A stretch of 63,130 bases of DNA from an uncultured Clostridium sp. (GCA_945949485.1 CAMFER010000001.1:68099-131228), one strand, 5' to 3'; counted from the stretch's first letter, positions 3,319 through 47,561 are shown. The notes: generated from the sequence alone by a model not told the origin. Numbers and translations are program-made.

Positions 3319-4498
3319 TTAAATCAATTCATTATGTATTTTATTTATAAGTTCATCATCCATTTTATCCACAATCACTTCAATTTTTGATTGTGTTAAA
3401 TTTATATTTTGTATTATTATTTTATTTTCTTCTAAAATCTTAATAACTTTTTGAAGTACAATATTGTCTTGAATTATTCCATATCCAACTATAGTTAATT
3501 TTATGATTTCTTCTTGTGAAATATTATATTCAGAATAGTTTTCTTCCAAGATTTCTTGTACTTTATTTAGTTCAGCTTTTTGAATTCTAAATTCCGCACT
3601 GAAATCAGAACTATTTTTATCAAAATATTCTGCAATTATATTTTTTTCCAATAAATCTTTATATATTTTATATGATAAATTTATATTATTTTCTTTTTCC
3701 CCTTGGACTTTTATTTTTATTAAATTATCATTTTTTACTATACTCTTTATCTCTGTATTTTCTATCTCTTTACAGATTCGAGTCCCCCTCTTGTCAACAA
3801 ATGTTGATTTTGCTTCTATATCACAATTAAATTTTTTACCTATTTGTATACATCTATTGTGTAAGACCTTAGCTCCTGCATCTGCTATTTCTTGCATTTC
3901 ATCAAAAGAAATTTCATCTAATTTTTTTGCCATAGTAGTTATATTTGGATCTGAAGAATATATACCATCCACATCTGAAAATATATAACACTTTTCAGCT
4001 TCTAATGCTGCTTGTAAAGCAACAGCTGTTGTATCTGATCCTCCTCTACCTAGAGTTGTAATATCATTTTCTTCATCAATTCCTTGAAACCCTGCAACTA
4101 CAACAATATTTCCTTTTTCAAATTCTCTTGCAATCTTTTGAGTTTCAATTTGCTCAATTTTAGCCTTTTTATGAATTGAATTTGTTATTATTCCAGCTTG
4201 CCATCCGAGTTAAAGAAACCGCTTTATATCCTTCTCTATTTAATAAAATACTTAACTTTGCCGCAGTAATTTGTTCTCCTGTTGATAATAGCATATCTAT
4301 TTCTCTTTCATTAGGTACTGCTGACAACTCTTGAGCTTCCTTTAATAAGTTATCTGTAGTTTTTCCTTGTGCTGATACTACAACAGCAATATTTTTTGCT
4401 TCCTTCTTTAAATTAATAATCTTTTTAACTACTGCATTTAATTTAATATTATCAGCAACTGAACTGCCTCCAAATTTTAATACTATTGTGTTCATCAT
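3319..4498 (-). pseudogene. aspartate kinase, reading frame interrupted by one extra C at 4207 (frameshift or sequencing artefact)
   Basis: N-terminal 97 aa (KFGGSS...KAVSLT) run in one frame. The +1 frame from 4206 downward reads GWQAGIITNSIHK...VVAGFQGIDEENDITTLGRGGSDTTAVALQAALEAEKCYIFSDVDGIYSSDPN and then the ACT domains, ending at 3319. Confidence 0.85.
4205..4207 (-). other. zero-frame CGG codon at the aspartokinase frameshift site (ACT CGG ATG)
   Basis: Codon 98 counted from the ATG at 4498. Removing the C gives ACT GGA TGG = T-G-W, matching the conserved LTGWQAG block. Confidence 0.85.
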
Positions 4499-14288: not shown

Positions 14289-14615
14289 ATATGTTCTTTA
14301 TTTTCTACATCCTCATTGAATACAACACTAATTCACATCTTGAATTTTACTAACTTTAAAAGCTCTCTTTTAATATCATAAACTAGTTAGTCCTATTATA
14401 CATCCAGCTATGAGTACTCAAAAAGTAATAAAGTAGTGCCTTCGCCACTTTAAAACAAAATTGTTTCCTACCTACCTTGTAAATGGTAAAATAATATGTA
14501 GGAAAAACGACATATTTTTTTGCCAAAATCCTACAAAAACTATTGACATTTACAATATTAACTTTTAAAACAACTTTTCTACATGTTTAAATTTTAGTTT
14601 TCACAGCACTCAGTC

Positions 14616-15734
14616 CTACAAAATATAAAGTGTGGGGCGAAAAGTAACGTTGCCGCTGAGATAGTAAAAATTACTGCGACGAATGCTAGCTCTCTCGTTG
14701 CTGTCCCTGCTGCGAAGGCCTCCTCTATACACAAAGCTCGTATTTATTTTTTCTGCTACATATTCCAAACAATTTGATTCTAAGTCATATATATTTTGTA
14801 CTTTATCATAATCATTTAGTCCTGATTTAGTTACATCTGTTCCATTATGTCTATTTTCATCATATACTCTTACATCAAATAAATACCCTTTTGCATCATT
14901 TTTCCTGTCTACAAAATGCATTACCATATCCCATTGTATCCCTGAACACATTGCACTTCTTACATTTTGATTTGTATTATCATACATTGTTTTAGCTATT
15001 CTTTTACACTCAGTTTGTGTTTCTTCAACATACACTGTTGCATTTTGTTTACTTACTACATTTCCACCTTCTTCTCCTGCTTCATATCTTCCTATATAAA
15101 ATCCTTTATATTTTATTACTGCATTTCTTTCTGCTGTTTCACTGTTTTCTGCACTATCTGTTTCTGGCTTTATTCCTTCTGGTAAATATCCTGTATCTGA
15201 TATTGTCCCTTCTGGAGATGTTTCTGATGCGTTGCCATACCAACTTGGATATGTTAAATCTCTTTCATATTCTCCTTCTTCTATTGGTATCCATACAAAT
15301 TGGTTATATGTTGCTCGTATATTATCAATATCACTTTTCCAATCTACTTCTGTTCCTTTTGGTATGTCATATATTACTAATCCTGTTGATATTTTTTGCT
15401 CTTCTGATATTCCTGATACTGTAAATCCTGCTGGTACTGTTGCTGTGTCTGTTCCGTCATTATAATTATCTTTTTCTGTATTTTCTACAATTACTCCTGG
15501 TACTACATCTTGACTTTCTAAGTTTACTTTGTTATAAGCATTTTCCATTTCAGTGTTTGCATCAACCCCCTGATATTTTTCACTTAATTTATCAATATCT
15601 GAATTTTGTTTGATCAACTTGTTATTAGTTGAAGAATAAACAACTATAACAACTGAAAGTACTAAAAATATCGAAGTTATAACAAATATTGTAACAGAAC
15701 CCATTTGTTCTTTTAATTTTCTTTTTATATTCAT
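14616..15734 (-). CDS. membrane-anchored protein with C-terminal FGE-sulfatase / C-type-lectin-like domain
   Basis: N-terminal TM segment (GSVTIFVITSIFLVLSVVIVVY). FGE-like blocks GFYIGRYEAG, IQWDMVMHFV, NIYDLESNCLEYV, YRGG...FRPTLYI. GGAGG RBS lies 20 nt after the restored gdpP stop. Confidence 0.55.
   Translation of the reverse strand: MNIKRKLKEQMGSVTIFVITSIFLVLSVVIVVYSSTNNKLIKQNSDIDKLSEKYQGVDANTEMENAYNKVNLESQDVVPGVIVENTEKDNYNDGTDTATVPAGFTVSGISEEQKISTGLVIYDIPKGTEVDWKSDIDNIRATYNQFVWIPIEEGEYERDLTYPSWYGNASETSPEGTISDTGYLPEGIKPETDSAENSETAERNAVIKYKGFYIGRYEAGEEGGNVVSKQNATVYVEETQTECKRIAKTMYDNTNQNVRSAMCSGIQWDMVMHFVDRKNDAKGYLFDVRVYDENRHNGTDVTKSGLNDYDKVQNIYDLESNCLEYVAEKINTSFVYRGGLRSRDSNERASIRRSNFYYLSGNVTFRPTLYIL
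14628..14727 (-). other. GC-rich, NNC-codon-rich 3' end of the FGE-like gene (candidate DGR variable region)
   Basis: Hand count gives about 51 G+C in 14631-14730, against roughly 27% elsewhere. 15 of the last 37 codons are NNC (GGC CGC AGC GAC AGC AAC AGC CGC TAC CTC AGC GGC AAC CGC CCC). Confidence 0.5.
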
Positions 15735-17894: not shown

Positions 17895-18101
17895 TTATTG
17901 TTCTTGTAATGTTTCTTCATATATTTGCTCAATGTCATTATTTGATTCATATTCTTCATGAATTTCATTTATCTTTCTTTCTTGATTAACCTTTTTATTA
18001 TTAATATTCATATATACTAATATTATTATGCTACACAAAAAAATCATTACAGTCAAAACCAATATAGTTGTTGAAGCTCTTTCTTTTTTTAACATTTGCA
18101 T
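17895..18101 (-). CDS. small membrane-anchored protein (68 aa) with N-terminus paralogous to that of the 14616-15734 product
   Basis: MQMLKKERASTTILVLTVMIFLCSIIILVYMNINNKK... GGAGAGGA RBS precedes the ATG at 18101. About 35% identity over about 48 aa with KEQMGSVTIFVITSIFLVLSVVIVVYSSTNNKL. Confidence 0.5.
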   Translation of the reverse strand: MQMLKKERASTTILVLTVMIFLCSIIILVYMNINNKKVNQERKINEIHEEYESNNDIEQIYEETLQEQ

Positions 18102-18171
18102 ATTTATCTTCCTCTCCATATTTTTTCTTTAATTTTATCAATTTTATTTTTTTTAAGCAACTCTATTTAAG

Positions 18172-39061: not shown

Positions 39062-42000
39062 CTATTTATTTAAAGTTTTTCTTTTAATTAGATAAATTCC
39101 TACTCCTAAAATCACTAATGCTCCTATTCCTATTGCAATTGGTATTATGAAATTATAGTTTGCACCTGTACTTGGAGTTACTATTACAATCTCTGCTGTA
39201 CTATCATCTGTTTCTGTTTTTCCTGTTCCTGGTACATAATTACCTGGAGTTGTTGTTAAATCAGATCCTCCTGTTTTATTGATTTCTACTATTTCTGTTT
39301 CATTTCCTAATTCTATATCTTCTGATGTAGATAATATCTTTGAAACATTCAATGTAACTTCTGCTGATTTGGTTGGCTCTAATTTTTGTCCTTTTAATTT
39401 TTCAGTATATAGTATTGTTGTATTCTTTAGATTTGATTCTTCACTGTTATATACAACTTCTGCAACTAATGATTTCACTTCTTCTACTGTTACAACTTTC
39501 CAATCTTGGTTCTTATCTTGATCAAATCCCCAATCACTATCTAAGTAATCTATTACACCTGTTGGCTCTATTGTAACTACATCGTCTTCTATAATTCCAT
39601 ACTTATAGAAGTTTTCTGATAAGTAATCAAGTTCACTTATATTTGTTGCTTTAATTATATATCCTACTTCTACAGTAGCACCTTGAATCAACTCATTGTC
39701 TAATTCTACTCTTACAAATCCATTTGCTGGTTCTAAATTTGATGATGGTCCCATATATGTTACATAGCTCTTTTGACCTGTAAGTTTTCTGTTACCATTT
39801 TCATCTTCTTCTATCTTAGTATCAACAATTACTTGACCATTTGCTAATGTAACTTTAAATGTTCCTACACGTTTTGATAAATCCATTGCTTGTCTTGCTC
39901 TTTCTACAATACCAAAATCAACATTTCTAATTCTGTAAGTATATCTATCTCCACTTGATGCTGTATATGTAGTTTCATATTCTACTCCAATTCCCATTGT
40001 TGGTGTTGTAGAATTCATTTTATCTATAGTCGTTACTGTATTGTATTTAATGTTTTGCAATTCTTTATCAATATCTAATCTTGTTTGATAGTCATCTAAT
40101 GCATCTGTTTTTCTTGTATCTACATTTTGTTTATACCATTCTTTATTATTTTGATCTCTTGAGCTATCATATACTGTTCCTTTGTAATTTTGTACTGTAT
40201 ATGTTTTATCTCCCCAAGTATATGTTAATGTATAGTCACCTGGTATATATCCTGAAATATAGAAATCTCCATTTGCATCTGTTTCAGTTTCATAAACTTT
40301 TCCGCTTCCTGTATTTTCAGTTAATGTAACTTTAACACCTTGTATTCCAGTTTCTCCTTCTTCATAAGCTCCACTACCTTGTCTAACTTTACCTGTCATT
40401 AACTCTCCAGTAGTTGAATCTAAGAATACTTTACCTGTTAATTCTCTTGCATCTGCCACTTCTAATTTTAGTGCAGGGCTAGAATCTGTATCATCTTGGT
40501 ATGTTGTAGTATCTCCTGGTATAGCATTTGCTGGATTTGAATTCATATCAATACCTGCATATACTTTACCATTTTGATCAAATACAGAATATGAATTTAT
40601 TTCAGCAACATTATCTAAATTTTCACCATCATTTAAAATGTTTATTACGGCTTCTCTGTTTAATTCAAACTGTACATAAATATCTTCTTGACTTTGAGCA
40701 TTTAATCTTGAATTATTATTAATTGTTATTTTTGAGTATTCTGAATTATATGCTCCATTATTTTCATATTGAATATTATTTGCTACATTTCCTACATCAT
40801 CTAAGCCTTTTCCTACTGCAACTACAGAATATCTACTATCGTAATAGTCTACTATATTTTTTACTTCTGTTACTAAAGTTGTAGATCTGTTTTTTACAGA
40901 TAATCTATATGTAATATATACTTTTAATTCTTTGCTCTTATCATTTTCATTTATATATTCATAATCTGCTTTGTAAATTGCTCTTGTGTATGACATATTA
41001 CCATATTTGTTTCCAAATTTAACACCTACATTAAATCCATCACCATATTCTCCTTGGTTTAAGAACCTTTGTGAATATACATATGTGTGATTATATCCAT
41101 TAACAGCAACTCTTACATTTTCAATGTCTTTCATTAACGCTATATTTGGTTGTTCTCTTTCATACAATCCTAAATTTATGTATTTTATTTCCTCTTGTCC
41201 GTATGTAAAATGATCTTTTATGTAATATCCAGTTTCATTAGTATTTGCTGTTATTGTATATTGTCCATTATTTATTAGAGTTGATGTATGTGCATTTTTA
41301 TCTATATTGTATGCCAAATTATGCTTTTCATTTCCGTTAACATCTCTAGTAAATCCTGTATCAAAAGTTCTTCCTTCGACTACACTAAAGTTTTTATTAA
41401 ACTCATCTCTTACATTTTCATTTTCAGCTGATTTTGAACCGTTATCTTTGTCAATATGTGGTATTACATTTGAGTATGTTAGTCCATCATATTCGAATTC
41501 TACATAATAATCATCTAGTTTTCCTAATAATACATTGTCAAACTCGTAAGCACCACCATTAGCTGTTTTTGTTTCTCTTTCTGTGTTTCCATTTGTTTTA
41601 TCTTTAAGTCTTACTGTTATACCGTCTAATAAAATATCATTTGAATCATAATCTTTATCTTTATATAATCCATTTAATGTTGATTGTTTTCCTGATATTT
41701 TATCTACCCAAACATAACCTGATAATTTTACAGATAATTGTATGTCGTTCAATTCTAGATTTAATTGTTTCTTTGATGTAAATGGTTCACTAATCATTAA
41801 GTTTTGTGAATATCCCCCTTCTAGGAACCACATATTTACACCTTTTACATCCGCTTCAGCTTCTGCCTTTATACTTTTTATTTTAGTGATTTTATCCTCT
41901 AATGGTACAGATATATAGAAATCCTTGTTTGATTGTATTCCATCTGCTCCGTACCAATATTCTGTATTTCCACTAAAGCTGCTATATAATACTTCATCAA

Positions 42001-42658
42001 TGTTATTTCCGTTTTGGTCTTTCAATTCTATCTTAGTTATCTTACCTGGTAATGTCCAATTAAATGGTCCAACTCTTACATATTCTTTTCCATCTTTAAT
42101 ATATGAATCTACTTTTAATTTCTCTTTATTCGTATTATCTTTCATTTCCATTGATTCATATTGATTTGCATAATTATCAGCAGCTGCAATTAGTTTATCA
42201 GCACCACTTAGAGTATAATATACTGGATCTGGAGAATACATTGCAAAGCTTCTATATAATCCTGCGTGATGAGCTCCAACTACATTCATCCATGTATATC
42301 CATATGCCCAAATAGCATTTTGTAGTGGTCCATGTTCTTTATCATTACCATTATCAGCAGACATTATATATGCTAATTTCGAATTTTCTTTACTTGCTAT
42401 CTGCTTTCCTGTATGGTCAGTTGAAACATTTCCATCTATTCTTACATTTGATACCACACTATATATTGTTCCATTATTAATCAATTGTAAACGTTCAAAA
42501 CAGAATATATTAGTACTACTTAAATATTGATTCATATTAACTTGTAAACTTTGCCCAACATAATATGCATTTGACGTAGTATTAAATCCTAGTACTGCTA
42601 ATATAATTATTATAAATGCTATTATCGTCTTTATTATAATTCCTTTTTTATTACTCAT
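39062..42658 (-). CDS. large cell-surface protein: putative thioester domain + SdrD-B/CnaB-like domains + C-terminal sorting signal
   Basis: Signal/TM segment N-terminus. FCFE (Cys codon 42500-42502) and LQNAIW (Gln codon 42320-42322). Two GYVWVD/GKVFLD...GV.V.L prealbumin-like domains. Tail TPSTG + hydrophobic stretch + KRK. Start at ATG 42658 follows AAAGGAGG. Confidence 0.65.
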   Translation of the reverse strand: MSNKKGIIIKTIIAFIIIILAVLGFNTTSNAYYVGQSLQVNMNQYLSSTNIFCFERLQLINNGTIYSVVSNVRIDGNVSTDHTGKQIASKENSKLAYIMSADNGNDKEHGPLQNAIWAYGYTWMNVVGAHHAGLYRSFAMYSPDPVYYTLSGADKLIAAADNYANQYESMEMKDNTNKEKLKVDSYIKDGKEYVRVGPFNWTLPGKITKIELKDQNGNNIDEVLYSSFSGNTEYWYGADGIQSNKDFYISVPLEDKITKIKSIKAEAEADVKGVNMWFLEGGYSQNLMISEPFTSKKQLNLELNDIQLSVKLSGYVWVDKISGKQSTLNGLYKDKDYDSNDILLDGITVRLKDKTNGNTERETKTANGGAYEFDNVLLGKLDDYYVEFEYDGLTYSNVIPHIDKDNGSKSAENENVRDEFNKNFSVVEGRTFDTGFTRDVNGNEKHNLAYNIDKNAHTSTLINNGQYTITANTNETGYYIKDHFTYGQEEIKYINLGLYEREQPNIALMKDIENVRVAVNGYNHTYVYSQRFLNQGEYGDGFNVGVKFGNKYGNMSYTRAIYKADYEYINENDKSKELKVYITYRLSVKNRSTTLVTEVKNIVDYYDSRYSVVAVGKGLDDVGNVANNIQYENNGAYNSEYSKITINNNSRLNAQSQEDIYVQFELNREAVINILNDGENLDNVAEINSYSVFDQNGKVYAGIDMNSNPANAIPGDTTTYQDDTDSSPALKLEVADARELTGKVFLDSTTGELMTGKVRQGSGAYEEGETGIQGVKVTLTENTGSGKVYETETDANGDFYISGYIPGDYTLTYTWGDKTYTVQNYKGTVYDSSRDQNNKEWYKQNVDTRKTDALDDYQTRLDIDKELQNIKYNTVTTIDKMNSTTPTMGIGVEYETTYTASSGDRYTYRIRNVDFGIVERARQAMDLSKRVGTFKVTLANGQVIVDTKIEEDENGNRKLTGQKSYVTYMGPSSNLEPANGFVRVELDNELIQGATVEVGYIIKATNISELDYLSENFYKYGIIEDDVVTIEPTGVIDYLDSDWGFDQDKNQDWKVVTVEEVKSLVAEVVYNSEESNLKNTTILYTEKLKGQKLEPTKSAEVTLNVSKILSTSEDIELGNETEIVEINKTGGSDLTTTPGNYVPGTGKTETDDSTAEIVIVTPSTGANYNFIIPIAIGIGALVILGVGIYLIKRKTLNK

Positions 42659-42683
42659 TTTTCTAACCTCCTTTCTTCCTAAA

Positions 42684-45600
42684 TTATTTATCACCTAATT
42701 GTTTTTTCTTCTTTATGATTACTACTGCTACTACTGCTAAGATTGCTACTATTATTATAGCTATTGTTGTGTATAAAACAGCACCAGTTCTAATACTTAT
42801 AATTACTTCTGCCATTCCCATGTCATTTTCACCATTTAAATTATTTTCTGGAGTAGAATTACTGTCTAATAATCCTAATTCGTTATAGTCTTCAGCAATC
42901 TCTGCTGTATTTGGTATTAATCCTGTGTTGTTTTCATTCATCACCTTAGTTAGTGTTAATGTTATCTCTTTTGTTTCACCTGGATTGATTATTTCATTTG
43001 CTAACTTTGTACTATATATAGTATTTCCTACTTGATACCAGTCTTTATTTAATTCAGAAGTGAATTTAAGTTCTGTTGACATATAGTCCGCTATCTTTCT
43101 TGCATATCCTGCTACTTCACCATTGTTTGTTACAACTATCTTATATTCTATAATTACATTTGTTCCATTTAGTTTTTTAGCATCTAATTCAAACTTAGCT
43201 GTAGTTTCATTGTCATATTCTTTAACTGTAGTTCCATTACTATCTTGTATAACTATTTTGCTTACATATTTATCTAATTTCAAATCATAATTTTTAAGTT
43301 GTATCAAACCTAAATTAATATCAGATATATTTCCATCTTTTATCTCTAATATATCAGTTGCTGCAACATTTTTAGTTTCACCATTTATTGTTAAATCACT
43401 TAACATTACATCTGAATTATTTGTTTCTGATACACCTTCAACTTTATATTTTGTAATTCCGTATTTAGTTGTATCATAATCAAATACTACGATATATTTT
43501 CCATTTCCTATCTTGTCTAAAATATATACCCCATTTTCATTTGTTGTTACTTCTAATGTATTTCCATTAATATCTCTAACAAGATTATTTGTCTCTACAT
43601 TTAATAGTCTTACTTTTATATTTGATAAAGTACTTTCATTAGAATCTTTTTGTCCATTTGCATTTTCATCATACCAAGCAACACCTGTTATTGTTCTATT
43701 TCCTTGAGCTATATCATTATCTGGTACGTTGTTATCTCCTTCATCTACATTTCCATCATTTGATTGTATAATATGACTTATTTCTGATGTTCTTGCTATT
43801 TCTTCTCCGTATCTTTCTGCTGTAGCAACATTTGTTATCGCTTCTGACTCATCTCTATCTGCTGAATAATCAACTGTTGTAAGGATTTTTATTGTAGTAG
43901 TTTGTCCTGCAGCAATATCATATGAAATTTTTAAATTATTGCCTTGTACTTGTCCCATATCTTGTCCGTCAACAGTTACTTTATTTATTGTTAATTGACT
44001 TGGAACATTATCAGATATTGTTAATCCTGATGTTTTTGAAGAAGATTTGTTTTCTACTGTTATTGTATATTCTATTTGATCTCTAGTTTTTACATATTTA
44101 TTATCTGGAGTAGCTGTCATATTTAATAATATGCTTGTCTTATTAACAGTAGATTGTAAACTATTTGATCTGTATTCTGTATTTTGCTTATCTAAAGCTA
44201 TTACATCTGAATACATTCTATCACTATTAGTTAATTTATTAATAGTAATGTCGTAGCTTATTACTTTATTTTCCCCTGGTTCTAGTGAACCAATATCTAT
44301 TTCATCATTATATTCGATTTCTTCTGTTTTAAGTTCATTTTCTTGAATAGTTAATTCTTCTTCTGTTATTTCTCTTGGTTCTTCGTTTGTAGTTTTTCCT
44401 GAACCTGGTTCATATAAGTCATCATCTGATACATCATTTTTCTTCATTCCTGTTATCAACATTGTTCTTTCAACTGTAACACCTTCTGGTATATTAGTTC
44501 TTACTTTTACATTATCTTGTCTTTCATTAGAAATATTTTCTATAATTGCATAATATTGAACTACTCCACCTTCAGTTATTTCTAGTCTTGTATCTGTAAC
44601 TTGTTTTACTGTTGCTCTTAAAGTAGCCCCAGCTGTAGTATATGTGATTTCATTTGTTTGTTTTGATGTATCACCATAATCTACTTCTGCTTTATTTACC
44701 AAATTTGTTCCTGCTACTGTATCTGTTTTTACTCTTACTTCAAACTCTTTGTAAATACTTTCTCCTGATTTTAAATTTTCAATAGTTGTTTCATATGTTT
44801 TATTATCTAATTCTTTATAATATGAAACTCCTGTATATTCAAAATTTTCTTCAGGCTCTACTAGTACTGTTCCTTCTGGTATATTCGATTTTATAGATAT
44901 ATTTCCAGTATCTGCTGTTCCTGTATTAGAAACTTCTACTCTGTATTTTATTACTTCTCCATTTCTAACTGTTCCTGTGGCTTCTTTTCCACCTATGAAT
45001 CCAGTAAGTTTTGTTTCAATGTTTGGTCCTATTCCTGTTTGTAATTTTAAATCTGTTGCCTTTATTTCCCCAGAAACTTTAGTTTGACTATTTGTATATA
45101 TAACTTTGTATCCTATTGTCGCCTCTTTGTTATATTCTAGATTTGCTGGTATTTTAATTTTATGCTTTAATACTACACTTTGTCCAACGTCTATATTATC
45201 TATCTGTACTAAATATTTCTTAGCTTTAGAAATATCTAAAGAATCTGTCCAACCATTATCTTTGTTATTTAAATCTTCTTTTGCATTTTCATTTTCTGTA
45301 TAGTATATTTTAACATTTGCTGTTTCAGCAGTTAAACCTTCTATAACTGTTGCTCCCATATTATTTTTATTACTGTCTGTTACTAAAGTTCCTAACACTT
45401 TTACATTCTCAATTGCAGAATCTGCATTATTTATTATTTCAGATTTAACTTCTGATTGTTTTTCTTTTACTCCTCTTTCTAGCATTACATCTTTTGAATC
45501 TTCTTGTCCAAATGTCTCTATTGATAATTCTTCAATACTATTAATTGCTGTTATATCTTTTGGAGCTACTATTTTTATATTAGTAGATGCACTGCCATTA

Positions 45601-47561
45601 TTTTCATAGTTCACTGCTTTTTCATTTGAATATGTTAAATTAATTTTTTCTTCACTTGTTGCAGATTTTTTATTAACAGATGCAGTTAAATTGACAATTA
45701 TATTTGTTCCCTCTACTGTTTCTTCATTATATGCTGTTTGTTCTCCTTGTAAGTATATTTTTATATTTCTTCCATTAATTTCATAATTTTTAAGTTCTAA
45801 TCCATTTCCATATAATATATCAACACTAGAAACTTCTGCACTTTCAACTTGTTCTGGTAACTCAATTGTTAGTGTAGGATTCTTAAATAATTCATATTGT
45901 TCACTATTTGTTTTTAAAATCGCTTTTATTTGTAAATCATTTTTTGTAACTGTTGATAATGTATCTTTATTTGTTTCTATTCTTGCCTCTGTTTTTGATT
46001 CTTGTAAATCAATTTTTGAAACAGTTTCTTTTTTGCTTCCTTCTGTAAATGATTCATTACCTTCCATATTATATTCAGCTGTTATATTTGTCTCTATTTG
46101 AGTTGCTGATTTTACAATATCTGCTTCAGAAGCTTTTATTGTTTTTGTATGTTTAAATTTCAATTTTCCTTCTGAAGTTGGTGTAGAAAGTCTTATTTGT
46201 AATGCTGATGGTTCTTTTCCTGTATAATCAATTACAAAATTTCCATTCTCATCAACTTGACTATCTTTTGTTATTTTAGCCAATGACTCATTATTTTGAT
46301 TGTATATTTCTACACTTCCATTATCGCCTAAAACTTTTGTAAATTCTTCTTTGCTAATTATAGTTTTATTATATACAACATTTGCACTTTGTTGATTTTC
46401 TCCGTTAGTATATACTGGCTGATTTTCTACAACTTTGATATAATCTATTGGTTTAGCAAAATTAACATCAACATATGTATCTGTTACATATTGTCTATCA
46501 ATTTTAGAATATATTTTTCCTTTGAAAATGCTTGTCTCATTGTTTGATGATTTTATAGCTATTGTTTCATCTATATTTTCATCAATAAAACTCATATTTA
46601 CTTTTAAAGATAACTCTGCTTTATCATATAAATATACTTTTTCTTCTGATGAAATTCTAGCATCTTTAATATTAGCATCTTTACTATAAATACATGTTAA
46701 TATAACATTCTCATTTCCATAAGTTTTCCAATTTACTTTGTTTTGGTCATTTGCTTCATTTTTCATATTAAATGTTACAACACCATTTTCATACTTGTAA
46801 TCCCATTTATTAATGTTATTCACATTAACAACTTTTACGACTTCAGGAAATTCTCCATTAATCTCTGGTAAATTCAAAGTTGATTGTATTTCACTTATTG
46901 GATAATTATTTTCTTTTAATCCCATATTCCATGAAAATTGTACTACTCTTTTTTCTTCACCATCAATCTTTTGAATTTTATTTGTTATCAATTTAATTTC
47001 ATTAAGTACACTATCTCCTGTGTTACTTTCTGTCATCTTTAATTTAATTTCTCTCTTTGATGTTATTTCAATGTCTTTTTGCGAACTATCTCTATAAATA
47101 CCATTGATTTTTGCTGTTGTAACACAATCTAATAAACCTATATCATAAAATTCATCTTTTATAGGCTCTATCTTTATTTTGATTTCAGCTGTTGTTCCAG
47201 CATTTATTTGATTAAGGTAGATTGTATTTCCATCTATTTTATTTATAAAATCACTTTCATAATCTTTTAAAATAAAATTATTATTTTCAAGTGATATATT
47301 GCCATTAAAATACCCTTCCTTTTTTACATTTATTTTAATATATAGATATGTATCTACATTTGAAAATTCTCTTTCTAGATTGTCAGATTTATTTCCATTT
47401 TCATCTTCGAATCCAATTTCAAATTCAACATTTTTGTTATTAGTAGAAACATCTTCTGCAGCATATGTAACAAGTCCCGCTCCCACAAACACAAAATTTG
47501 TCATTGTCATTGTCAATATTAATATTGTCGCTATACATATTTTTAAAATTTTACTTTTCAT
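42684..47561 (-). CDS. giant (1625 aa) cell-surface protein with DUF11-type repeats, an SdrD-B-like domain and a C-terminal sorting signal
   Basis: Signal peptide. Repeated ...N(T/I)G..(x)...(I/V)...IPEG(T/V) DUF11-like units. GVAWYDENANGQKD...IKVRLLN domain. Tail SIRTG + hydrophobic stretch + KKKK. AGGAGG RBS. Confidence 0.65.
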   Translation of the reverse strand: MKSKILKICIATILILTMTMTNFVFVGAGLVTYAAEDVSTNNKNVEFEIGFEDENGNKSDNLEREFSNVDTYLYIKINVKKEGYFNGNISLENNNFILKDYESDFINKIDGNTIYLNQINAGTTAEIKIKIEPIKDEFYDIGLLDCVTTAKINGIYRDSSQKDIEITSKREIKLKMTESNTGDSVLNEIKLITNKIQKIDGEEKRVVQFSWNMGLKENNYPISEIQSTLNLPEINGEFPEVVKVVNVNNINKWDYKYENGVVTFNMKNEANDQNKVNWKTYGNENVILTCIYSKDANIKDARISSEEKVYLYDKAELSLKVNMSFIDENIDETIAIKSSNNETSIFKGKIYSKIDRQYVTDTYVDVNFAKPIDYIKVVENQPVYTNGENQQSANVVYNKTIISKEEFTKVLGDNGSVEIYNQNNESLAKITKDSQVDENGNFVIDYTGKEPSALQIRLSTPTSEGKLKFKHTKTIKASEADIVKSATQIETNITAEYNMEGNESFTEGSKKETVSKIDLQESKTEARIETNKDTLSTVTKNDLQIKAILKTNSEQYELFKNPTLTIELPEQVESAEVSSVDILYGNGLELKNYEINGRNIKIYLQGEQTAYNEETVEGTNIIVNLTASVNKKSATSEEKINLTYSNEKAVNYENNGSASTNIKIVAPKDITAINSIEELSIETFGQEDSKDVMLERGVKEKQSEVKSEIINNADSAIENVKVLGTLVTDSNKNNMGATVIEGLTAETANVKIYYTENENAKEDLNNKDNGWTDSLDISKAKKYLVQIDNIDVGQSVVLKHKIKIPANLEYNKEATIGYKVIYTNSQTKVSGEIKATDLKLQTGIGPNIETKLTGFIGGKEATGTVRNGEVIKYRVEVSNTGTADTGNISIKSNIPEGTVLVEPEENFEYTGVSYYKELDNKTYETTIENLKSGESIYKEFEVRVKTDTVAGTNLVNKAEVDYGDTSKQTNEITYTTAGATLRATVKQVTDTRLEITEGGVVQYYAIIENISNERQDNVKVRTNIPEGVTVERTMLITGMKKNDVSDDDLYEPGSGKTTNEEPREITEEELTIQENELKTEEIEYNDEIDIGSLEPGENKVISYDITINKLTNSDRMYSDVIALDKQNTEYRSNSLQSTVNKTSILLNMTATPDNKYVKTRDQIEYTITVENKSSSKTSGLTISDNVPSQLTINKVTVDGQDMGQVQGNNLKISYDIAAGQTTTIKILTTVDYSADRDESEAITNVATAERYGEEIARTSEISHIIQSNDGNVDEGDNNVPDNDIAQGNRTITGVAWYDENANGQKDSNESTLSNIKVRLLNVETNNLVRDINGNTLEVTTNENGVYILDKIGNGKYIVVFDYDTTKYGITKYKVEGVSETNNSDVMLSDLTINGETKNVAATDILEIKDGNISDINLGLIQLKNYDLKLDKYVSKIVIQDSNGTTVKEYDNETTAKFELDAKKLNGTNVIIEYKIVVTNNGEVAGYARKIADYMSTELKFTSELNKDWYQVGNTIYSTKLANEIINPGETKEITLTLTKVMNENNTGLIPNTAEIAEDYNELGLLDSNSTPENNLNGENDMGMAEVIISIRTGAVLYTTIAIIIVAILAVVAVVIIKKKKQLGDK

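Follow-up and report, generated by a model that had tools for sequence, protein, structure and literature searches.

Does the unusual C-terminal tail of a gene lodged between gdpP and rplI in an uncultured Clostridium sp. constitute the variable region (VR) of a diversity-generating retroelement (DGR), and if so, where is its writer? DGRs diversify the extreme C-terminus of proteins with a CLec or FGE fold, such as Mtd of Bordetella phage and TvpA of Treponema; replacement of template adenines, mostly in AAC codons, leaves a run of NNC codons and a raised local GC content. A first-pass annotation of the locus, made from the sequence alone, had pointed to such a tail at positions 14619-14727 and suggested a remote target as a possibility. 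In the following, the window denotes the whole analysed stretch of 63,130 nucleotides (GCA_945949485.1 CAMFER010000001.1:68099-131228), which is 63 kb of a 131-kb contig; other contigs are given by their L numbers.

We conclude, with a probability of about 0.88, that positions 14629-14738 are the VR of a remote ('orphan') DGR target gene that was written in trans by a cassette elsewhere. The system is of a known kind and involves no new mechanism: the gene belongs to a large, unannotated family and is a remote target with an FGE/C-type-lectin domain.

Target Gene and Genomic Setting

The target gene was called as an open reading frame of 372 aa on the minus strand (14616..15734). Its product consists of an N-terminal hydrophobic segment (probably an anchor), a conserved middle part and a C-terminal FGE-sulfatase/C-type-lectin-like domain ending in the VR. 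At E <= 0.001, 3174 proteins are homologous to the window protein; a precomputed Pfam domain is lacking in all 120 of these that were listed. The family is hosted by uncultured Clostridia, as represented by metagenome-assembled genomes (MAGs), with many copies per genome. A phage origin of the family was considered and is unsupported, no relatives having been found among IMG/VR viral contigs.

The window comes from the chromosome of a spore-forming bacterium with low GC content and includes rpoB, rpoC, gdpP, rplI, dnaB, tilS, ftsH, spoIIE and a penicillin-binding protein gene, with the target flanked by gdpP and rplI. At the orthologous locus, the target is also present in L001, L006, L063, L065 and L066. 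L065 and L066 are independent assemblies from other samples that repeat the order gdpP-target-rplI-dnaB over 10 kb on each side; the arrangement in the window is thus not an assembly accident. No DGR cassette was found within 10 kb of the target in either of the two.

Using queries from a related cassette, tblastn revealed no homologue of the reverse transcriptase (RT), Avd or the MutS-like protein in the 63-kb window, and an ungapped scan for a template repeat (TR) or a second VR copy, with 45% mismatch allowed, matched the VR alone. The annotated absence of a reverse transcriptase, an avd gene and a template from the window was thereby reproduced in both searches. The idea of a remote target fits these results as well as the gdpP-target-rplI arrangement without a cassette in two further assemblies. 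An Rfam scan of the window matched no family.

In an ORF of 74 aa between rpoC and gdpP (17895-18119, minus strand), the N-terminal part is a transmembrane module with homology to the target's own N-terminus (BLASTP E = 4e-12, 34% identity over 61 aa), and a 68-aa counterpart occupies the same place in L001, L006, L063 and L065. Farther away on the minus strand, two adjacent ORFs (39062-42694 and 42684-47561) of 1210 and 1625 aa, with SdrD_B, CarboxypepD_reg and DUF11 domains, probably encode cell-surface proteins; a link to the DGR target is not apparent.

Composition of the C-Terminal Tail

NNC codons account for 15 of the last 37 sense codons of the target versus 15 of the other 335 (Fisher p = 3e-9), and those in the tail are exactly the ones listed in the first-pass annotation. 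Their rarity in the rest of the gene and in the window was likewise reproduced, with NNC amounting to 4.9% of codons over all window ORFs of at least 200 aa. In the same set of ORFs, every 37-codon stretch with at least 10 NNC codons lies within 14622-14786.

The 100-nt GC profile at the patch reads 0.43-0.46, and the window-wide maximum over 100 nt, 0.51 as against a mean of 0.278 (sd 0.055), falls in the patch at 14602-14773; the tail had been described as GC-rich, and no other part of the 63-kb window reaches its value. Adenine makes up 24.5% of the coding strand in the patch versus 45.4% in the rest of the gene, which identifies the rise in GC as adenine depletion.

Variability between Strains

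The VR was placed at 14629..14738 on the minus strand via homology to the template repeats of two MAGs, L034 and L022, and via alignment of same-species alleles; the sites varying between strains extend over ~14646-14729. The region first annotated as 14619-14727 is real, but its boundaries had to be shifted ~10 nt upstream on account of the cross-strain variability and the homology to the template repeats of relatives.

Over 5-21 kb, the five assemblies with the orthologous locus share 99.0-99.7% identity with the window. Within the 110-nt VR, they differ from it at a rate of 0.11-0.32 per nt, versus 0.002-0.005 outside the VR in four assemblies and 0.012 in L006, and no other 110-nt stretch is as rich in differences in four of the five comparisons. 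At the protein level, 44 near-identical sequences were taken from 90%-identity clusters around the window protein, comprising 11 full-length tail alleles and one truncated allele. Residues 333-364 are variable in 23 of 36 alignment columns with a mean entropy of 0.895 bit, as opposed to 39 of 262 columns and 0.093 bit outside this segment. Hypervariability at the orthologous locus is confined to the VR, as anticipated for a diversified C-terminus.

Alleles 1-5 have the 3' half of the VR in common and differ only at adenine-type sites of the 5' half. This pattern is not predicted by the canonical model, because canonical homing rewrites from the 3' end. Six protein backgrounds, with up to 8 residue differences outside the tail, carry the window's own tail allele without any change.

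The target exists in a short (372/374 aa) and a long (424/426 aa) form, with ~900 nt of near-identical 3' sequence in common. For alleles 1, 2, 6, 8, 10 and the truncated one, short and long paralogues of one sample have the same tail; either gene conversion or collapse by the assembler could account for one VR allele in both forms. Target copies stand in tandem in L006 (3803-4921 and 5490-6764, separated by a 569-nt spacer) and also in L063, L064 and L068, and in L068 the long form is truncated by an IS91-type element. Nine of the 44 near-identical proteins (P0281, P0282, P0286-P0290, P0295, P0299), short and long forms alike, stop early in the VR (...NNPSHVVVGRGGYYVRDQLQ*), apparently due to a frameshift by which the conserved AGAGCTAGC is read as a TAG stop.

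Variation was also seen at residues 323 and 330 directly upstream of the VR, and a second, smaller mosaic patch is located at ~15190-15300 (minus strand), where target residues 165-174 read PSWYGNASETSPEG, PSLYGNESETTPEG or PSYYDEPLETTPEG, depending on the strain. This patch is outside any template homology and looks like the product of recombination.

Coincidence of Variable Sites with Template Adenines

Of the 39 VR columns that vary among four alleles, 31 correspond to an adenine in the template repeats of two relatives (Fisher p = 6e-8). A same-species template was inferred codon by codon from alleles 6, 7, 8 and 10, leaving the window allele aside. This reconstruction reads SNSFVNRGGKYNKNSNKRASIRNSNNDNANSNITFRPTL, nearly the same peptide as that of the relatives' real templates; as a searchable sequence, it is AGCAATTCTTTTGTGAATAGAGGAGGCAAATACAACAAGAACAGCAACAAAAGAGCTAGCATTCGTAACAGTAATAATGACAATGCCAACAGCAACATTACTTTTCGCCCCACACT, with CTAATACAA expected after it. 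Between the window tail and the inferred template, mismatches affect 18 of 45 A sites and 4 of 65 non-A sites (p = 1.8e-5). The four non-adenine changes are T>C in codon 341, G>T in codon 357 and GC>CT in codon 359, and a 6-nt deletion is present at the 5' edge of the VR. The variable sites thus coincide with template adenines, which agrees with the replacement of template adenines assumed in the first-pass annotation.

Exact-pattern scans for the VR/TR, with N at the variable sites, of viral, GTDB-representative and JGI metagenome contigs yielded no same-species template repeat, and a scan with the motif flanking the TR on its 3' side matched only DGRs with other templates.

DGR Cassettes in Relatives

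L034 and L022 each contain a complete cassette adjoining one target copy, in the order target, MutS_I gene, bAvd, RVT_1 and A-rich template repeat of ~120 nt. The Pfam E-values are 4e-7 for MutS_I, 2e-16 for bAvd and 5e-19 for RVT_1, and the motifs IGNYTSQ and YLDD can be read from the RT sequence. In the related MAG CAUWKC, a single TR matches 11 VRs, each on a contig of its own; the flanks downstream of these VRs differ from one another except for one stretch of ~470 nt common to L015 and L028. There, the adenine bias of TR/VR mismatches was observed directly: mismatches amount to 239/493 for A, 36/351 for C, 9/187 for G and 9/209 for T. With complete cassettes, A-rich templates and adenine-specific mismatches to the VRs in its relatives, the family is tied to DGRs. 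In non-diversified paralogues, the C-terminus is AT-rich and the motif after the stop codon is missing.

Conserved 3' Element

The VR is followed by a conserved element (14549..14628, minus strand) that comprises the last four codons, the stop codon and ~66 nt downstream; inside it, the motif GTAGGACTGAGTGCTGTGAAAAC is located at 14597-14619 (minus strand), as a single copy in the window where 0.01 would be expected by chance. The element follows every same-species copy, including those followed by a cassette, with 97-99% identity, and the diversified paralogues of other species with 78-86% identity, and it is absent after non-diversified paralogues. From this distribution, the element is probably a target-recognition (IMH-like) region. 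A hairpin or cruciform after the VR was rejected as a candidate feature, given a DNA fold z of +0.99 and an alifold result without consensus structure.

Fold of the C-Terminal Domain and the N-Terminus

The C-terminal domain (~residues 205-372; 14619..15122, minus strand) was delimited by homology to domains of the FGE-sulfatase/C-type-lectin fold. The window protein itself gave no Pfam match to PF03781 at E up to 1; two paralogues, L012:2255-3304 and L045:2539-4029, pass that model with 33.8 and 33.9 bits (cut-off 23.3). Using hhalign, the family profile A2 aligned with these two paralogues at 99.7% (E = 1.8e-26) and 99.9% (E = 3.3e-34), the alignment running through the variable tail to the C-terminus. 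A mixed profile, A4, built from the window's C-terminal domain and distant paralogues, retrieved SUMF2 (1y4j, 9e-6) and Treponema TvpA (2y3c, 4.6e-5) from the PDB, besides PorK, EgtB and FGE.

AF2 models were of low confidence, with a mean pLDDT of 63.5 for the full length and 49.6 for the C-terminal domain; Foldseek searches of PDB and BFVD with these models brought up nothing at E < 1, and the best-ranked BFVD entry was a phage FGE-like protein at E = 1.8. Homology, as distinct from structure, supports assignment as a divergent FGE-sulfatase/C-type-lectin domain. The FGE/C-type-lectin label of the first-pass annotation is hence retained at the level of profile homology to the PF03781 paralogues, SUMF2 and TvpA, but the window protein stays below the Pfam threshold.

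In alignment A1, a hydrophobic helix at ~residues 13-35 (15630..15698, minus strand) was recognised that probably serves as a membrane anchor; AF2 places, at low confidence, a long helix at residues 3-53. Instead of the window's version, most relatives possess a pilin-like KGITLIALVITIIVLLILAGVSIA N-terminus, reading KGITLIAL... without Glu5. Hints of a pilin class for the N-terminus were weak, all matches being sub-threshold (PDB geopilin E = 0.42; N_methyl 0.03-0.13 and Pilin_N 0.12 in distant paralogues), and prepilin N_methyl models did not match the window protein.

Cassette Traces in Contigs Probably from the Window's Species

In three contigs, L008, L046 and L047, a target 3' end plus downstream element is ~98% identical to the window over ~90-330 nt; judged by this identity over short overlaps, they probably stem from the same or a very closely related species. 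In all three, the start of a MutS-like cassette gene is present ~250 nt after the target region; it covers only the first 26-36 codons and is 74% identical to that of L034. The VR of L047 is identical to that of the window. In L046 (573-2375) and L047 (1451-2069), an IS66 element (TnpB_IS66 plus transposase) cuts the MutS-like gene after ~26 codons, and the same IS66 end was found in L007 (7227-7281), 55 nt past the target stop codon. These IS66 insertions are natural DGR disruptions.

A downstream element of ~119 nt is repeated after several different targets, which makes it ambiguous which target adjoins the cassette on these short, low-coverage contigs. L046 also carries, at 3-329, a different, canonical FGE-type target (…GNVWEWT…RGGGCNGSASSYPSYFRYVFSPDASSTYFGFRPAIYL) before the same downstream element and MutS-like gene, meaning either a second target family in the species or contigs that are chimeric across the repeat.

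The same-species cassette was sought by three routes. The MutS-like N-terminus led only to fragments ending in junk or IS66, and contigs of the long-form paralogues end in tandem copies, IS66 or IS91. Among RT homologues, 3528 matches were obtained, and 120 of them were listed; their identity to the query, 79-89%, does not allow species to be separated.

Proposed Mechanism and Alternative Explanations

According to the proposed mechanism, an RT-bAvd complex together with the small MutS-like protein would copy the A-rich TR into cDNA, with misincorporation at template adenines during cDNA synthesis, and the cDNA would replace the VR, guided by the conserved VR 3' end and the motif after the stop codon. 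AAC/AAT codons would thus be turned into NNC/NNT, depleting A and raising GC, and the diversified part would be a ligand-binding tail of ~35 residues at the end of the domain. The gene, which stands alone between gdpP and rplI, would be a target served in trans, one of a family with many copies per genome in gut Clostridia. We infer that the writer of the window copy is a cassette of the same type as that of the relatives.

Variation of the tail might instead come from recombination or gene conversion among paralogues, i.e. cassette-type antigenic variation without reverse transcription. The tandem long-form copies, the recombinational appearance of residues 165-174, the common 3' half of alleles 1-5 and the occurrence of one allele in short and long paralogues of a sample all speak for this, the last of these being open also to collapse of the 1-kb repeat by the assembler. 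What recombination leaves unexplained is the position of the variable sites on template adenines, the A depletion with its NNC pattern, and the full DGR cassettes of relatives with matching A-rich templates; as the source of the variation, we consider it very improbable, and it probably shuffles DGR-made alleles rather than creating them. An assembly artefact, whereby the true cassette adjoins the gene and the assembler skipped a repeat of ~1 kb (the 3' part of the gene plus the downstream element), is given just as little credence. Such an artefact would suit the observation that what comes after the downstream element is rplI, a further target copy or a cassette, depending on the contig; against it, L065 (42.9 kb), L066 (23.7 kb) and L001 give the same gdpP-target-rplI junction, and the long form with cassette-type downstream sequence sits elsewhere, at ruvB-queH-acetyltransferase.

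That the tail is a mere compositional oddity, be it through horizontal acquisition of a GC-richer segment, through local codon selection or by chance, has virtually no probability. Other 100-nt windows with GC >= 0.45 do exist in conserved genes such as ftsH and rpoC, but none of them reaches the GC content of the patch, which is the window's peak and the sole place with at least 10 NNC codons per 37; moreover, it is the most variable stretch between strains, and conserved genes behave in the opposite way. The initial interpretation as a DGR variable region is therefore upheld by strain variability, the coincidence with adenines and the cassettes of relatives.

As regards the present state of this DGR target, the VR in the window's lineage looks aged, and it is somewhat more probably quiescent than currently rewritten. 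Quiescence is favoured because of the four non-A changes, the 6-nt deletion, the same tail in six backgrounds and the IS66-cut cassette in L047.

A farther-reaching reading, which we regard as unlikely, is that in this group of uncultured gut Clostridia one chromosomal MutS-like/bAvd/RT cassette serves at least 10 scattered, membrane-anchored lectin-fold targets, with the pattern of alleles 1-5 reflecting not recombination but patchy, non-canonical cDNA integration that is possibly linked to the MutS-like protein. If true, this one-cassette repertoire of at least 10 targets would exceed any described DGR in remote targets per template, and the window's gene and similar copies lodged between housekeeping genes would be its orphan members.

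Relation to Known Systems and Significance

Remote targets are restricted to non-phage DGRs, with a maximum of seven non-adjacent targets, and MutS-like accessory genes occur in 16 DGRs, together with avd and without an HRDC gene (Wu et al. 2018, PMC5758913). The DGR of Treponema denticola with its target TvpA (2Y3C) resembles the present system in being chromosomal and non-phage, in its FGE-type C-type-lectin targets with the VR at the extreme C-terminus, and in serving scattered paralogous targets in trans, seven of them remote (PMC5758913). TvpA is the second-best PDB match of profile A4, a similarity at the profile level only. Differences concern the N-terminus, which is a lipoprotein signal in the Treponema targets and pilin-like hydrophobic here, and the MutS-like gene plus bAvd in the present cassette, unlike in the T. 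denticola DGR. The 11 VRs per TR in CAUWKC compare with at most seven non-adjacent targets (PMC5758913).

Adenine-specific TR->VR mutagenesis, an Avd accessory protein, a C-terminal VR in a C-type-lectin fold and AAC-rich template codons are shared with Bordetella phage BPP-1 (Mtd, Avd, TR, Brt). That system is phage-borne with a single adjacent target, whereas the present family lacks IMG/VR relatives; the flanks of VR and TR past ...CACT are unrelated here, as opposed to the near-identical IMH/IMH* pair of BPP-1, and no downstream hairpin was detected after the VR.

A small MutS-like gene with avd and without an HRDC gene is also found in the MSL-containing DGRs, such as that of Legionella pneumophila (PMC5758913). 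In comparison, the hosts here are uncultured gut Clostridia, the target family is a different one and an extra OB-fold/SSB-like ORF follows the TR. The pilus-adhesin DGRs of Bacteroides (bioRxiv 10.1101/2024.11.15.621889) are likewise gut-bacterial and chromosomal with surface or adhesive targets; they differ in phylum, in the type V pilus and in target architecture.

The locus illustrates that raw sequence can suffice to recognise a DGR target, by A depletion and a C-terminal NNC run, even with the retroelement located elsewhere in the genome. For a large human-gut Clostridia family of 3174 homologues, it suggests a role as diversified surface proteins that probably bind ligands and of which each genome has many copies. 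Of use for DGR biology are the MutS-like accessory gene, the OB-fold ORF and the count of remote targets that one template serves in relatives, and the IS66 knock-outs of the cassette provide a natural comparison of active and frozen VRs.

Further Features of the Related Cassettes

Directly downstream of the template repeat, an ORF of ~80 aa is conserved in six cassettes (L034 2942-3190, L022 3767-4018, L061, L054, L050 and L057). It shows weak OB-fold/SSB-like Pfam matches and may be an additional accessory gene; no description of such a post-template ORF was found in the literature.

Directly adjoining the template on its 3' side, DGRs that differ in their templates share the conserved sequence CACTCTAATACAAATTT(C/G)AG (L034 ~2755-2775, L022 ~3550-3570, L049, L050, L061 and L054-L057), which may be a spacer or priming region. 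In L054-L057, this motif is kept next to a template of only ~25 nt, and these look like degenerate cassettes.
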